From: a bacterium
Lineage (GTDB): Bacteria; Fidelibacterota; Marinisomatia; Marinisomatales; UBA1611
Assembly: GCA_038127595.1 (NCBI GenBank)
Contig: JAYPIC010000014.1
Coordinates: 1-23,847 of the forward strand
Reading direction: 5' to 3'
DNA: 23,847 nucleotides
Below the pieces are notes generated by a model, which did no database searches, was not told where the DNA came from, and saw nothing but the letters and a program-made list of their open reading frames with translations. The position numbers were made by a program, and so were the translations under genes. This document shows, piece by piece, positions 1 to 8,941 of this stretch (the first letter of the stretch is position 1; each line of letters opens with the position of its first letter).

Positions 1-55
1 AACAAAGAATAAAACCAGACATCAAAAAATTACATATATCAAATAGGAGTTAATT

Positions 56-223
56 ATGAAAAAAAAATACTATGTGATACTAAATGCATTAATTGTGAAT
101 GCTACTATCTTTGCTCAGGGAGTTGACTTCCCATCTGAACCCGCTCAGGCACCAATCGGAGGATTAGGGCTCTTAGCGGCTGGAGGTGCAGCACTGGCAT
201 ATAAAAAATTAAGGAAAAAGTAA
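56..223 (+). CDS. 55-aa exported microprotein with a PID-CTERM/PEP-CTERM-like C-terminal sorting segment (not in ORF track)
   Basis: Manual translation MKKKYYVILNALIVNATIFAQGVDFPSEPAQAPIGGLGLLAAGGAALAYKKLRKK. AGGAG RBS at 45-49, signal peptide ending IFA-Q, then Pro-rich linker, PIGG, hydrophobic helix and basic tail. Confidence 0.8.
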   Translation: MKKKYYVILNALIVNATIFAQGVDFPSEPAQAPIGGLGLLAAGGAALAYKKLRKK

Positions 224-240
224 AAAAATCTATATTTAAA

Positions 241-268
241 AGCCCCACATTCGTGGGGTTTTTTGTTT
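241..268 (+). repeat. 28-bp island repeat, copy 1 (hairpin + T-tract; terminator-like, candidate recombination site)
   Basis: AGCCCCACATTCGTGGGGTTTTTTGTTT, 17 nt after the stop of 56..223. Confidence 0.95.
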
Positions 269-351
269 ATGGCCTAAACGCACTGGTAATACACTGGTCA
301 TTTTATAAAGTGTAATTGTTCGTATATTAAATCAAGATTAGGAGCATAGGA

Positions 352-603
352 ATGATATTAAAAACAATATTAGGTATAGCACTATTCATTAGTGGTGGTC
401 ATATAGTAAGTACTAATTTGAAATTGCACCACTACAGCGATGATGATTTCAAAGATATTTTTTACCTTAAACACAATAAATCAATTACTAAGCATTGTGA
501 GAGGCATTCAGAATTGGAAGATATTAAAAAAAAGAAATCATATCATAATCAAGAACCAAACACAGTTTATAAAGTAACTAAACACAAGGACAAGGCTTCT
601 TAA
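352..603 (+). CDS. Hypothetical 83-aa protein with N-terminal signal/TM segment
   Basis: ORF with AGGAG/AGGA RBS upstream and hydrophobic N-terminus; sole gene between repeat copies 1 and 2. Confidence 0.7.
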   Translation: MILKTILGIALFISGGHIVSTNLKLHHYSDDDFKDIFYLKHNKSITKHCERHSELEDIKKKKSYHNQEPNTVYKVTKHKDKAS

Positions 604-650
604 AAAAATCTACCCAGAAGTCTTAACATAATACTAGAATAATTATAAAG

Positions 651-678
651 AGCCCCACATTAGTGGGGTTTTTTGTTT
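651..678 (+). repeat. 28-bp island repeat, copy 2
   Basis: AGCCCCACATTAGTGGGGTTTTTTGTTT; one loop mismatch to copy 1. Confidence 0.95.
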
Positions 679-919
679 GTGGAATGATGTTTTTTTCATT
701 TGGGGCTGGAGGGGCTTTTCATGCCCCAGATTCTACTATGAGTGAAAGCATGCGACAATTTGGTGGTGTTATGGGTAAAATATGTATAGCAGCAGGATTA
801 TTTTATGCAAGTCGTATCCTTCGAATAGGTCCAAAAGGTTTAAAATGGATCACTAAGACAGATGCAGGAAAACAATTTGAAAATGAAAAAATATTCAAGA
901 TGAAAATGCTACAAAAAAA
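679..919 (+). pseudogene. 5' part of an interrupted hypothetical membrane protein gene, possibly also 5'-truncated at the repeat
   Basis: The frame of ORF 663..956 is open from inside the repeat. Joining nt 919 to nt 1960 gives a continuous frame ...KIFKMKMLQKNERIDALYEELPD... Confidence 0.55.
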
Positions 920-952
920 ATATCACAAAAAATCACAAATTAAAACAACAAA

Positions 953-1918
953 ATGAAAGCTGTTATATGGAGAAAATACGGAGATACTAAAAAAGCATTA
1001 AGTGTTGAATCTGATATTGCAATCCCAGAAATAACAAAAGACAATCAAGTATTAGTCAAGATCGAATACGCAAGTTTACACCCAGGGGATGATCATATCA
1101 TGAGACCATTAATGTTTCCAATCCGATTTATGTTTGGTTTATTTTCTCCAAAAAATCGTGTTTTTGGAATGAATGGATCAGGAATTGTACACAAAGTTGG
1201 TGATAGTGTAACAGAGTACAAGGTTGGTGATAAGGTGTTTACTGATTCTATAGGTTTGGGTGCATTAAGTGAGTATCAACTTGTTACTGATAAAAGATGT
1301 TGCAAAATTCCAAGTCATATGAGTACAAAAGAAGCAGCAGCATTAGGAACATCGTCTAGTACTGCACAATACATTGTTGATTTATTGGATATTAAAGAGA
1401 ACCAAACAGTACTTGTAACCGGGGCATCTGGTGGTGTTGGATCATCATTGGTTATGTTATTCAATCAAGCTGGTGTTATTGTAACAGGAGTTGCATCTGG
1501 AAAACATGAAGAATCGATTCGAAAACTCGGTGCCAATGAGTTCATTGATTATAAAAAAACAGATTGGGCAAATGATGATAATAAGTATGACTACATTGTG
1601 GACTGTTATAATACATTGAATTCAAAGGGTATCAAAACAATGGTTGCAAAAAAAGAATCCATTTATTATCATATTGGTGGTAATGCCTTCATGTCAGCTG
1701 TGTGGGCATCCATTACAGATAAGAAGGTTAATTTGTTAACATATGATACAAATCATGAAACAATGAAGAATCTTGTTAAGAATCTTGAAAAAGATGAATT
1801 AAAAGTGCCAATTGCAAAGGAATTTGATTCGTTGGAAAAAGTATTTGATGCAATGGATTTCTTGATGAATTCTAATAAGTCGGTTTTAGGAAAACTCGTC
1901 ATAAAAGTTCAACAGTAA
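953..1918 (+). CDS. Medium-chain dehydrogenase/reductase (MDR), zinc-independent NAD(P)H quinone-reductase-like
   Basis: MKAVIW...YG start, GroES-like domain (ASLHPGD, GIVHKVGDSVTEYKVGDKV), Rossmann motif TGASGGVG, C-terminal GKLVI; no catalytic Zn-ligand GHE motif. Confidence 0.9.
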   Translation: MKAVIWRKYGDTKKALSVESDIAIPEITKDNQVLVKIEYASLHPGDDHIMRPLMFPIRFMFGLFSPKNRVFGMNGSGIVHKVGDSVTEYKVGDKVFTDSIGLGALSEYQLVTDKRCCKIPSHMSTKEAAALGTSSSTAQYIVDLLDIKENQTVLVTGASGGVGSSLVMLFNQAGVIVTGVASGKHEESIRKLGANEFIDYKKTDWANDDNKYDYIVDCYNTLNSKGIKTMVAKKESIYYHIGGNAFMSAVWASITDKKVNLLTYDTNHETMKNLVKNLEKDELKVPIAKEFDSLEKVFDAMDFLMNSNKSVLGKLVIKVQQ

Positions 1919-1959
1919 ATATTGTGTGTACTCTATATATATATTTTAATTTAAAAAAA

Positions 1960-2173
1960 TGAGAGAATAGATGCTTTATATGAAGAGTTACCTGATATAG
2001 ATAGTTTGACCAAATTCCAAAAGCAATTTCGGCCTTCTATAGATGCTAGGATAGATAAAATGCGAATCCAAATGACAATTGAAGAAAAGGCTTTAGATGA
2101 TTACTTAAACCAGATACCTATCGGAATTACGGACCTCGTGGACATGGTAAGACCATCCTTTAAGCGCATCTAA
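1960..2173 (+). pseudogene. 3' part of the interrupted hypothetical gene (no own start)
   Basis: Stop-free frame ERIDALYEELPDIDSLTKFQKQFRPSIDARIDKMRIQMTIEEKALDDYLNQIPIGITDLVDMVRPSFKRI*, ending 9 nt before repeat copy 3. Confidence 0.6.
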
Positions 2174-2182
2174 TTTGTACTT

Positions 2183-2210
2183 AGCCCCACATTTGTGGGG
2201 TTTTTTGTTT
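2183..2210 (+). repeat. 28-bp island repeat, copy 3
   Basis: AGCCCCACATTTGTGGGGTTTTTTGTTT; followed by GTGGCCT, similar to ATGGCCT after copy 1. Confidence 0.95.
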
Positions 2211-2295
2211 GTGGCCTCACACACATTGTAGGGTAATTTTTTTGAGTTCTTTTTTAACTTTTTTAATATGTGCGTGTCTAAAGATTAACAACATA

Positions 2296-3132
2296 ATGAA
2301 ATTTTGTTTCCATATATTATTAATCTTTTTCATTCCATTTTTTTCTTCCTGTGCTGAAGATGATGAGAACTTACAATATGAAACAGATGGTTATAAAATG
2401 GTATTGTTTGGACATAGTTTTTTTAGACCATATGCTGAAAAATTTAATGAAATTGCATTAGACGCTGGCTTTGATAATCATGATGGTGTGGTTATATCTC
2501 ATGGAGGGGAAACAGGAAGTCCTGTTAATCTGTGGAGTGATTCAACACTATCACAGCATAGATTAATTAAAGAAGAATTAAATAAGGGTGGTGTCGATGT
2601 ATTAGGCATGTCCGCTGACATATTACTTGAAAACCCAACAGATGGTTATAAAGATTGGATAGAATATGCTTTGACAAATAACCCTGATATAACAGTTTTT
2701 TTATCAATGATACCTCCAAGATATCCTGATGATTGGGACTCAATTTCAAATGCGTTAGGCTATGAATCAATGCAACATACATATGATAGTTTTCTCAATT
2801 TTAGAAAAGATAGTTTGGTAGATGTATTGCGTGCTGATTTTCCTGAAAATAATATTTTTTCTATACCTACGGGTCAAGCAACATTAACATTGTATGACTT
2901 ACAACGAGATAGCCTATTACTTGATGATATCTTATACAGAGGCAATAGAGAGTACTCTCTTTTTACTGATGAATTGGGACATCAAGGAGATATAATTATA
3001 AACACTGGTGCATTAATGTGGTTAGAAAGTATTTATAGTGTAGACCTTGATGAAAACGATTATGAGACAGGTTTTAATACAGACTTACACTCTATCGCTC
3101 AAGATATTCTTGATTCTTATAATCAGAATTAG
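2296..3132 (+). CDS. Lipoprotein, putative SGNH/GDSL-hydrolase-like
   Basis: Start re-called at ATG 2296 (MKFCFHILLIFFIPFFSSC, lipobox). Block-I-like LFGHSF and a C-terminal D-x-x-x-H-like segment TDELGH. Confidence 0.65.
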   Translation: MKFCFHILLIFFIPFFSSCAEDDENLQYETDGYKMVLFGHSFFRPYAEKFNEIALDAGFDNHDGVVISHGGETGSPVNLWSDSTLSQHRLIKEELNKGGVDVLGMSADILLENPTDGYKDWIEYALTNNPDITVFLSMIPPRYPDDWDSISNALGYESMQHTYDSFLNFRKDSLVDVLRADFPENNIFSIPTGQATLTLYDLQRDSLLLDDILYRGNREYSLFTDELGHQGDIIINTGALMWLESIYSVDLDENDYETGFNTDLHSIAQDILDSYNQN

Positions 3133-3227
3133 AAATATATTACATAAATTTTATTCAGTCGTTAATCTCAACTTAATTAGACCCCACCAACCAATAAAGC
3201 ACGGGGGTAGGTATGTGTATATAATAG

Positions 3228-3255
3228 GCTCATACATTCGTGGGGTTTTTTGTTT
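3228..3255 (+). repeat. Island repeat copy 4, partial: right 22 bp identical to copy 1, left arm replaced
   Basis: gctcat-ACATTCGTGGGGTTTTTTGTTT; 3234-3255 equals 247-268; 32 nt from the integrase stop. Confidence 0.9.
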
Positions 3256-3287
3256 TAAGTGGGAGCATTACACTCCCCCCATAATCC

Positions 3288-4166
3288 CTATAACACAAAG
3301 TCATCAATCTCCGTAGCAAGTAAAGGAGCATAATGACGCTCTGTTGTGGTCACAGATGAATGACCTAGTAGCTTGCTCACTTCATAGATAGGCCTGCCTT
3401 GTCTGATTAGATTGTAACCAAAGGTTCTCCTAAGGTCGTGGAACCTGATATCAGGGATACCAAGCCTTCTGGCTTCCTTCTTGAACTTGTGTGATACAAA
3501 GTCCTTGGTATAATCCCAGAGCTCATCAAGTCCATCCAATATCTCCTGAGCTTGGTTATTCAGTTTGATTAGTCTTTTACCACTTTTACCATATGCGACT
3601 ATATGATTGGAGAATATGTTTTCCCTCGATATAGAGCGTATTTCACCGCTTCTAGCACCAGTGTAGTAAGCGAATCTGACAAACAAATTGAAGCGGTTAT
3701 CTCTTATATTATCAAGCAGTGTCTTTAGTTCAGAATCACTTAGTACTCTGTTTCTGGACTCGCCTTTTGTATCACCTTCAAGCTTGTATGCCTTAGTGAT
3801 TAGACCTTGTTTTAAACCCCAATTCCAACAAATGTTAATCACTCTAGTATGTATTGCTTTCGTAGTTGGGTGAGCTGGCAGAGGTTTACCCGAGATGTAA
3901 GCTTTTAGTATTTGAGTATTGAGTTCTCTTGTTCTAGATGTCCAATCGTGTTTGGTGAAAAGATACCTATCCACAATTTCATCAAATGACAGGTTTCTTT
4001 TTCGAGTTTTTACTCCTGTCAGTTCTGCAAGCAATTCAAGCTCAACAACTGGTTTGAGCTTTTTAGCAACTTTCTTATCTTTCGTTCGAAGGCTTCTGGT
4101 AAGCCTTTGGTTATCATAGGATGTAGTGATGTACCATACACCACGGTTTTTATAGATTGTAGCCAT
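3288..4166 (-). CDS. Tyrosine recombinase / phage-type integrase
   Basis: Catalytic motifs TGARSGE (R), GKSGK (K), FHDLRR (HxxR), LLGHS (H), TERHY (Y). Arm-binding-like N-terminus (IYKNRGVWYI...RLTRSLRTKDK). GGAGG RBS at 4171-4175. Confidence 0.95.
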   Translation of the reverse strand: MATIYKNRGVWYITTSYDNQRLTRSLRTKDKKVAKKLKPVVELELLAELTGVKTRKRNLSFDEIVDRYLFTKHDWTSRTRELNTQILKAYISGKPLPAHPTTKAIHTRVINICWNWGLKQGLITKAYKLEGDTKGESRNRVLSDSELKTLLDNIRDNRFNLFVRFAYYTGARSGEIRSISRENIFSNHIVAYGKSGKRLIKLNNQAQEILDGLDELWDYTKDFVSHKFKKEARRLGIPDIRFHDLRRTFGYNLIRQGRPIYEVSKLLGHSSVTTTERHYAPLLATEIDDFVL

Positions 4167-4229
4167 AATTCCTCCAAATTATGACTGTTTTTGCTACATA
4201 TATACTTGCGTTACTTAGTTTTCCGACGG

Positions 4230-4292
4230 AGACACGCCAGATTTAGGATCTGGTGCACTTTGTGCGTGAAGGTTCGAGCCCTTTCCGCGGTA
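4230..4292 (+). tRNA. tRNA-Leu(TAG) 3' fragment lacking the 5' acceptor strand and most of the D-arm; probable att site
   Basis: AGACACG, anticodon arm CCAGA-TTTAGGA-TCTGG (TAG 4244-4246), long variable arm GCAC-TTT-GTGC, T-arm GAAGG-TTCGAGC-CCTTT, acceptor 3' strand CCGCGGT-A. No complementary RCCGCGG or TGGCGGAA upstream. Confidence 0.85.
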
Positions 4293-4300
4293 CTTTAATT

Positions 4301-7435: not shown

Positions 7436-8941
7436 ATGTCAAAAGCTTTAAATCAAATTGAACTTGGTACAACATGTATCATCAAAGAAACTGGACAATC
7501 AGGTACTTTGCAGAGGATTTTTCATTATCCAACTAAGTATTTGGTAGAGAATGAAGAAGGTGAATTTCAATATTATTCCACTCACGAAATATCATTTGAG
7601 GGGTATGATAGACCAAAAACAAGCTTAAGTATCCCAGATATACCCTATGAAGGTATTGGAACCAGTTTTGCAAGATGGGTTCCATTTGAATCAGAAAGTC
7701 AAGTGGAACATCATTTTCTTAGTTCAAAAGAAATTGTTTGGGACATGATCACATCATTGGAGCTTTATAATATTTGGTTTGATGGCGTCCAAAGAGCGAT
7801 AGCAGATGTGGACTCTGATAGGTACGTACATAAATTCTCTTTTGATAAATTAGATCTAAAGCCAGGTTCATTTTTCAAAATTAGACCAGCAACCTTAGCA
7901 CCGTGGTTTCGTTGTCGAATTATCACAGTAGAAAAAGAAAAAGAGTTCGGCTTTGATTTTCAGATGATGCCTTTTGTAACTGAATATGTATCATTTAAGC
8001 TTGAAGAATCAAAGAATGGTGTCTTTGTCATTTGTAATCGATATAGCAAAGGACCATTTTCTTTTTTAGCACTTTTAAATTGGAATAAAAGTAAATCAAA
8101 AATCTTACAGAAGCTTGCTGAAATAACCCCAACTATTGAGTTGAAAGAAGATGACATTGCAGGCGGAGATGTAAAAGGGGCAGGAGAGCCTCAATTGAAC
8201 AGAGATCAGACTGTTGCTTTTGTTGTAAACAAATCTTTAGATGGTGATAATGACCCACTAAATGCTTTGCCGGATAAGGTGACTAGAGGTATTGCAAAGG
8301 CTCTTTTGGTGAGGATAAAAAGAGGCTCCGCTGAAAGACCTCCTATGCCAGACCTATCTGCAGCTGCAGTTCCTGCACAAGCTCCTGTCGTGGCTGAACT
8401 AACTCAAGAGCAGACGATTGCTTTAGTGGTTAATAAATCTTTGGACGGTGACAATGATCCATTAAACGCCATCGAGGATAAAGTCACCAGAGGCAAAGCA
8501 AAAGCTCTGCTGGTAAAAATTAAAAGAGGTGCCGCAGAGAGACCTGCAATGCCAGAGATGCCCTCCGCTCCTTCGTCTACCTCTTCTGCTGGCTCAACAG
8601 AACTTACCTCAGAGCAGATTTTTGCTATTGCTGTTAATAAGGCAGTTGAAGGTGACATGGAGGCGGTTAATGCTATAGATGATAAAGTTACGAGAGGAAA
8701 AGCAAAAGCATTATTAGTTAAAATTAAAAGAGGAACTGCTGAAGCGCCGCCTATGCCAGACTTATCAGCACCAAATAATGAACCTGTAATTAGCGAAGAG
8801 TCTGAAACTGAGGAACAGCTTATGGAAAGATTGATTGCCGAAGGTTTGAAAGGTAATATGGAAGAAATTAATAGCCTTGATAACAAAGTACTTCGAGGCA
8901 AGATCAAGGCTGCAATTGTAAAAGCGAAAAGAAACAAATAA
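7436..8941 (+). CDS. Hypothetical 501-aa protein: small N-terminal beta domain, SRPBCC/START-like domain, four C-terminal helical repeats
   Basis: SSKEIVWDMITSLELYNIWF resembles the SRPBCC first helix; repeats visible by eye. Confidence 0.7.
   Translation: MSKALNQIELGTTCIIKETGQSGTLQRIFHYPTKYLVENEEGEFQYYSTHEISFEGYDRPKTSLSIPDIPYEGIGTSFARWVPFESESQVEHHFLSSKEIVWDMITSLELYNIWFDGVQRAIADVDSDRYVHKFSFDKLDLKPGSFFKIRPATLAPWFRCRIITVEKEKEFGFDFQMMPFVTEYVSFKLEESKNGVFVICNRYSKGPFSFLALLNWNKSKSKILQKLAEITPTIELKEDDIAGGDVKGAGEPQLNRDQTVAFVVNKSLDGDNDPLNALPDKVTRGIAKALLVRIKRGSAERPPMPDLSAAAVPAQAPVVAELTQEQTIALVVNKSLDGDNDPLNAIEDKVTRGKAKALLVKIKRGAAERPAMPEMPSAPSSTSSAGSTELTSEQIFAIAVNKAVEGDMEAVNAIDDKVTRGKAKALLVKIKRGTAEAPPMPDLSAPNNEPVISEESETEEQLMERLIAEGLKGNMEEINSLDNKVLRGKIKAAIVKAKRNK
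8195..8938 (+). repeat. Four intragenic repeats with a ~68-aa (~204-nt) period
   Basis: Units start near aa 254, 322, 390 and 457; consensus LTxEQxxAxxVNKxxxGDxxxxNAIxDKVTRGKAKALLVKIKRG. Confidence 0.92.

Follow-up and report, generated by a model that had tools for sequence, protein, structure and literature searches.

The window, i.e., the whole stretch of 23,847 nucleotides analysed here, opens contig C14 in a bacterial genome (G000; 2.0 Mb, 33% GC, 95.8% complete). Bases 1-4293 are island DNA and the contig begins inside that island; respiratory genes follow from 4372 onward. The island holds several copies of a 35-nt repeat, a tyrosine integrase beside a partial tRNA copy, and a small gene whose two pieces enclose an intact oxidoreductase gene of the MDR type:

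241-275, plus strand: cassette-delimiting repeat (GC hairpin and T run), copy 1; hairpin z -3.1 against shuffles.
651-685, plus strand: repeat copy 2, left border of the MDR cassette; identity with metagenome contig L007 begins at 651.
684-908, plus strand: 5' part of the disrupted small gene, a likely membrane protein (homologues P0139-P0142), with a 1-nt deletion near 885.
903-908, plus strand: left microhomology between target and donor; locus L004 shares sequence from 903, and an empty allele in run X4 matches to 908.
909-952, plus strand: foreign A/C-rich leader, including an A8 run at 913-920; its A+C share is reached by 1 of 795 host leaders, which may be that of the MDR gene itself, and an exact 22-mer recurs at a Flavobacterium gene start.
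953-1918, plus strand: intact MDR gene of the zinc-free quinone/enone reductase type, encoding 321 aa; the Pfam domains ADH_N and ADH_zinc_N_2 both score above cut-off.
1919-1947, plus strand: foreign trailer; in locus L009 it opens a 59-bp spacer that leads to a convergent gene, and context B (see below) ends at 1926.
1948-1959, plus strand: right microhomology, whose A7/A8 run also forms the target's Lys-Lys-Asn codons (as in the G058 homologue); L009 shares sequence to 1959, and the X4 allele resumes at 1948.
1955-2173, plus strand: 3' part of the disrupted gene, 72 codons without a start; 97% identity over 60 aa to P0140 and P0142.
2183-2217, plus strand: repeat copy 3, right border of the MDR cassette; identity with L007 ends at 2214.
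3228-3262, plus strand: degenerate copy of the repeat immediately beyond the 3' end of the integrase gene, placed likewise in L065, L066 and L067.
3288-4166, minus strand: tyrosine integrase, 292 aa (PF00589, E 2e-18).
4230-4293, plus strand: 64-nt att-like copy of the 3' part of tRNA-Leu(TAG), the intact tRNA lying on contig C10.

The preliminary description of this locus, made from the letters alone, placed a 321-codon MDR gene, with an A/C-rich leader free of a Shine-Dalgarno (SD) sequence and an AT-rich trailer, inside another gene, and each of these points holds. A search with the left-piece protein returned eight proteins from eight candidates. Two of them, P0140 and P0142, span the junction and match both pieces, as P0139 and P0141 do at lower identity; judging by this homology, the two flanking pieces belong to one gene, and full-length homologues of the rejoined gene do exist. 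A distant homologue is present in a Neomarinimicrobiota genome, and P0136, a protein with the same left junction as the window, bears the NCBI name Candidatus Marinimicrobia; on these grounds we assign the host to Marinimicrobia.

The intact homologues P0140 and P0142 carry 19 codons that are absent from the window, and the empty allele in run X4, after aligning to 908, continues through 52 other letters, exactly the count predicted by the 19 absent codons, before it resumes. The event was a replacement and not the plain insertion first described: 1,039 bp (between 908 and 1948) took the place of 52 bp of the target, with no target-site duplication. Nor do A7 tracts bound the foreign DNA, as had been supposed, since the left tract is the A8 run lying within it, the right run matches codons of the target (an A8 run in the G058 homologue), and the left junction falls at 903-908 rather than 913-920. 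The stretch common to target and donor at the left measures 6 nt in the window, or 7 nt counting the A at 902 (L007, X15); at the right, where the target letters at 1948-1952 are not seen directly, it is an A-run of at least 7 nt. With breakpoints placed at random between these sequences, a match of 7 nt or more arises in only 0.17% of cases. Excising 920-1959 does leave one open frame, but this in-frame join is a coincidence, because the window carries a 1-nt frameshift near 885: L007, X15 and the X4 allele have one more base there, and P0136-P0138 read the other frame. The window's frame ending in KMKMLQK is thus a product of decay.

Junctions of this kind could be produced by an assembly or amplification chimera, a caveat raised at the outset, and chimeras of the MDR gene do occur: P0002, a single-contig fusion of the first 92 MDR residues with the C-terminal part of ribosomal protein L2, is probably one, and locus L003 has Ns at its left junction. 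For the window's arrangement, however, a chimera is refuted, and we give it virtually no weight. The same two junctions are present in L007 (98.8% identical over 651-2214) and in contigs of run X1 (276-1397 and 1399-2322), which may be the source sample of the window, and the left junction recurs in RNA run X15, in P0136-P0138 and in the protein clusters to which these belong. No RNA contig spans the window's right junction, and the raw reads of run X22 (about 4% of the run) do not cover the MDR gene. Loci L004 and L009, which extend the foreign DNA, could be chimeric.

The MDR protein falls in a cluster of 116 members, and at least half of its words occur in 20 of the 24 runs listed, those 20 coming from 14 studies and including 6 RNA runs. 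Copies in marine metagenomes are 97-100% identical and lie in at least four contexts. Among eight metagenome loci, one (L007) has the window's arrangement (context A), two are the extended loci L004 and L009, and five (L002, L003, L005, L006 and L008) have an arrangement, context B, that also occurs in runs X2, X4, X16 and X18. Context B is another repeat-bounded cassette and has just about 914-1926 in common with the window, and the sequence on either side reads as a decayed gene in two pieces. In G352, the first 7 nt of a homologue of its right piece are those that close the shared part, an alignment that suggests a second microhomology capture of the MDR gene. This is a limited test of the second microhomology, in that the G352 contig starts exactly at those 7 nt; no intact target of context B was seen, and L073, with its start exactly at the shared 7 nt, could itself be a broken MDR-carrying allele. 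Contexts A and B are separate captures into repeat-delimited, integrase-linked Marinimicrobia cassettes. RNA contigs carry the MDR gene in four of four runs, contigs being no proof of transcription, and those from X16 and X18 continue into bacterial sequence at either end.

Occurrence in at least four contexts at such high identity would also fit a small mobile element that has ends of its own and is moved by an enzyme encoded elsewhere. Yet the ends of the unit differ by context (903 or 910-914 at the left; 1926, 1959 or beyond at the right), each capture deletes or interrupts target sequence, and the absence of terminal inverted repeats around the unit, noted from the first along with that of a transposase, was borne out. 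We therefore regard a mobile element as very improbable.

The foreign DNA is also longer than the leader, coding sequence, trailer and A7 of which the insert had been said to consist. In locus L004 the upstream side consists of other AT-rich DNA, about 100-140 bp long, which follows a truncated gene and the tail of a recombinase; this DNA matched nothing in 121 genomes, and its junction was not located. In L009 the MDR stop codon is followed by 59 bp, a convergent frame of 124 codons and then a Marinimicrobia-family peptidase gene, i.e., there is about 400 bp of further coding DNA downstream of the MDR gene, past the A-run. A frame of this length was reached by 9 of 2000 shuffles. Host DNA starts at base 560 of L009, so that the frame owes its ATG to the host and the ORF represents the truncated end of a longer gene. 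It is rich in Lys, Arg, His, Ser and acidic residues, a share reached by 1 of 1134 host ORFs, and it encodes arginine by CGT or CGA in 10 of 12 cases, whereas the host uses AGA or AGG for 76%. The ORF fits a codon model derived from the MDR gene better than do 1127 of 1134 host fragments and 1987 of 2000 host-style recodings, and 12 of 260 single host-gene codon models fit it as well. This codon usage suggests that the MDR gene and the ORF came from one donor, the linkage being seen in a single contig that could be chimeric. No relatives of the ORF were found in viral or genome contigs, among longer proteins or phages, in Pfam or in five related genomes; its closest Atlas look-alikes are eukaryotic nuclear proteins, all below 0.9 and leads only.

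Processed retrocopies of the LINE type have an intron-less coding sequence with little flanking DNA, and an A-run follows on the 3' side. The MDR unit had been read in this way, as a polyadenylated mRNA of a eukaryote or giant virus that was reverse-transcribed and inserted at an A-tract, and two features agree with that reading: in two independent contexts, those of the window and L009, sharing stops exactly at the end of the A-run, and the leader is extremely rich in A and C. But the unit differs from a processed retrocopy in having no target duplication and no non-templated tail, in the loss of target bases, and in donor DNA that runs into another gene. The A-run belongs equally to the target's codons and in L009 is followed by more spacer and the convergent gene; context B, in five of the eight loci, ends at 1926 before any A-run; and the X16 and X18 RNA contigs enter bacterial flanks on both sides. 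The convergent ORF with MDR-like codon usage in the single contig L009 points to genomic DNA, and not processed mRNA, as the donor molecule. We reject the retrocopy, to which we attach hardly any probability, and of the proposed eukaryote-to-bacterium transfer there remain a foreign unit and a cross-domain reading whose odds we judge to be about even.

The captured gene encodes an enzyme that Pfam, alignment and a structure model (pLDDT 88.9) agree in assigning to the intact, zinc-free type: it has GroES-like and Rossmann domains and an intact glycine-rich motif, and lacks zinc ligands. Its best fold match is ceQORH (5a3j; TM 0.87). This Arabidopsis enzyme, strawberry enone oxidoreductase (4ida) and Coxiella quinone oxidoreductase (3tqh) all have the same fold as the MDR (TM 0.83-0.87), and share with it the glycine-rich nucleotide-binding motif and the lack of a zinc-ligand motif, but are just 25-28% identical to it. 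The predicted activity is the NADPH-dependent reduction of quinones or reactive enones. Differences among the copies comprise 7 synonymous and 18 non-synonymous changes (pN/pS 0.67), with no significant signal of purifying selection (p = 0.25). A promoter scan remained at chance level (18 vs. 20.7), and Rfam gave no match at gathering score.

By its sequence the MDR unit is foreign to the host lineage. The MDRs that this lineage itself possesses are 30-31% identical to it and, in a mixture-model tree, group with proteins of Saprospiraceae and Salibacteraceae with support, the foreign MDR falling outside. When 484 host ORFs are ranked by how far their codon usage deviates, the MDR gene stands at the 98th percentile, though the integrase deviates more. 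The missing SD is weak evidence of foreign origin, because most host genes are without one (by the test applied, just 150 of 795 have it) and because the 22-nt leader is a real start in Flavobacterium.

Apart from the near-identical copies, no relative of the MDR exceeds 42% identity, either among the best 120 of 169 matches or among the best 150 of 23,201, and in both sets nothing lies between 42% and 97%. Genome contigs held no donor match; viral contigs held one match of 16 residues and otherwise distant MDRs only, viral MDRs being just 27-35% alike over long stretches. At the DNA level, 400 other genomes of the phylum gave matches of only 27-58 nt. The viral folds in BFVD yielded no donor lead and no giant-virus relative. 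According to one report, genes of Mimiviridae have a palindromic hairpin at the transcript 3' end (PMC4402537); a hairpin of that type is absent from the spacer, 164 and 196 of 200 shuffles folding as well. The MDR carries a proline/arginine insertion typical of a mostly bacterial subgroup, among whose members are eukaryotic ones from Rhodosorus (a red alga) and Gorgonomyces (a chytrid). In three trees, built from a set with few labelled eukaryotes, it sits on a long branch with a different unsupported sister each time. A FastTree grouping (260 rows) with P0237 and P0081 (0.96) was lost in the mixture-model tree; the pairing with a giant-virus row in that tree joins long branches and was rejected, as was the placement at 52% in the third tree, made by a quick method.

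A donor of eukaryote type, i.e., a eukaryote or a giant virus, is in our judgment a matter of equal chances, a protist being a doubtful candidate and a giant virus an unlikely one. The same DNA-level capture at microhomologies might instead have drawn on an unsampled bacterium or phage, most plausibly of the Bacteroidota, a possibility that we consider appreciable while still thinking it more probably wrong than right. The exact 22-nt leader occurs once in species-representative genomes (596 billion bases), where it marks the start of a gene for 187 aa in a Flavobacterium MAG; the best named MDR matches, among the best 120 of 169, are from Saprospiraceae and Flammeovirga; two of the three top Atlas clusters are mostly Bacteroidota; and the MDR gene is without introns. 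Moreover, genes of this group have A-rich leaders; they lack an SD and use A at -3 (PMC6847099). We judge bacterium-to-bacterium transfer to have the higher prior. If the donor were bacterial, however, it is hard to see why dense bacterial sampling yields no relative above 42% among the best matches listed, and the MDR lies outside the supported group of Saprospiraceae, Salibacteraceae and Marinimicrobia MDRs. The product of the linked low-complexity ORF in L009 differs from host proteins and is reminiscent of eukaryotic nuclear ones, and a single 22-mer match in so many bases is near chance expectation. In viral contigs an 18-nt version of the leader is uninformative, because it stands at an ORF start in just 4 of 51 loci.

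The setting of the captures is an array of one-gene cassettes delimited by the 35-nt repeat, behind which a conserved tail often leads up to the next start codon. Of 61 genomes searched, 41 have the repeat, among them 34 of the other 36 members of the family, and its reversed control gave no match; it is also present on contigs C29 and C50 of the host genome. The cassette at 651-2214 has other neighbours in L007, and in reads and contigs alike the joints fall at the repeat, where hundreds of X22 reads leave the window sequence. The integrase is rarer, occurring at E 1e-40 or better in 9 of the 61 genomes and 7 of the 36 of the family. At eight other integrase loci, the repeat lies just past the integrase 3' end in three and a tRNA-Leu copy is present in three; the integrase adjoins the partial tRNA copy in the window, L065, L066 and L071. 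The intact tRNA-Leu is on C10 and the partial copy on C14, the contig that begins inside the island. In its tyrosine integrase and tRNA fragment the locus resembles tRNA-targeted genomic islands.

It resembles integron cassette arrays in having one-gene units between repeats, in varying order, beside a tyrosine recombinase, and by analogy the array may work like one, with the candidate integrase or another enzyme as the mover. There are clear differences, however. By profile score the 292-aa integrase is not an IntI (TIGR02249, the integron integrase profile, gives 28 bits where the cut-off is 265), the array is situated beyond its 3' end, and the repeat folds as a simple, terminator-like hairpin with a T run and is far more widespread in the family than the integrase (34 vs. 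7 of 36 genomes). A literature search that covered few subscription papers returned no description of a repeat-based array in Marinimicrobia or of this gene. In L067 (G024; 330-1441) a bacterial-type MDR that is 31% identical to the captured one occupies an ordinary cassette with an SD, directly behind a repeat and adjoining the same integrase family, which hints that MDR activity is a recurring cassette cargo. One cassette in the array of L005 (2237-3163) encodes a short-chain dehydrogenase at 52% GC, far from host composition, and arrays therefore take in DNA of very different origins; in L008 an inverted repeat copy (27-63) stands ahead of the repeat of context B, and cassettes can therefore face opposite ways.

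The capture of a foreign gene into cassettes is real and unusually well recorded: a gene split in two, the loss of target bases, short stretches shared at both ends, a second capture with different breakpoints and the reordering of cassettes are all directly shown. As to how it came about, the account to which we would assign a chance of about one half is that a foreign DNA fragment with an intact reductase replaced 52 bp in the middle of a small cassette gene, with illegitimate recombination as the likely mechanism and the compact AT-rich genome of a protist or giant virus as the likely source. Illegitimate recombination at short common A/T-rich stretches would have joined the foreign DNA into the cassette gene. 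The extra DNA in L004 and L009 points to one original fragment longer than either capture; its trimming into cassettes would place the MDR gene behind the cassette's own promoter, and the cassettes would then spread among Marinimicrobia by recombination at the 35-nt repeat.

Comparable processes are double illegitimate recombination and SPDIR in Acinetobacter baylyi, in which heterologous DNA likewise replaces resident DNA through microhomology joins and without duplication (PMC4437187; 10.1101/2023.11.22.568220). The SPDIR patches described in the latter source measure 3 to about 100 bp, a range that the 1,039 bp seen here exceeds. That source also describes DprA as suppressing microhomology insertions in Acinetobacter; in contrast to that system, the present case is a natural event in a genome (95.8% complete) in which neither ComEC nor DprA, which natural transformation as the entry route would call for, was found. 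Also similar is a laboratory case in E. coli, where microhomology-mediated promoter capture activated a gene of eukaryotic type (Li and Bock 2019, PMC6614815): the foreign gene is trimmed at microhomologies of 3-12 bp and lands behind a bacterial promoter. That case was engineered, whereas here promoter capture and eukaryotic origin are inferred and the product travels as a cassette.

At this locus the way in which a cassette is made can be followed at the level of single bases: foreign DNA takes the place of the central part of an existing cassette gene at microhomologies and inherits the borders of the cassette, and it does so twice for one gene. To our knowledge, the origin of new gene cassettes is an open question even for integrons. 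If the donor was a eukaryote or giant virus, the copies, still near-identical, represent a recent transfer across domains into marine bacteria that are abundant and free-living, and nature would here offer an equivalent of the laboratory result of PMC6614815. We put somewhat below an even chance the fullest version of this reading, in which a very recent transfer from a eukaryote or giant virus to a bacterium is seen at every stage, from a raw fragment with a truncated eukaryote-like gene (L009) through two independent trimmings to ocean-wide spread by an undescribed integron-like Marinimicrobia cassette system that turns stray DNA into exchangeable genes. If the donor was bacterial, the locus still documents clearly how a cassette forms, within a repeat-based array of a kind for which we found no Marinimicrobia description in the literature searched.

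Several other features of the window deserve mention. A 55-aa ORF at 56-223 has a weak match to a PID-CTERM sorting signal (E 5.5e-5, below cut-off) and ends just 5' of the first repeat. Between repeats 1 and 2, an 83-aa ORF (352-603), behind whose position 601 run X1 has an extra A, is possibly another decayed cassette gene. A lipoprotein-like cassette gene at 2296-3132 has strongly host-like codon usage and no match in Pfam or NCBIfam. Beyond the island, a 501-aa protein (7436-8941; no Pfam match) with three C-terminal repeats of 68 codons (161-nt copies at a spacing of 204) is encoded between heme-assembly and cytochrome bc genes.
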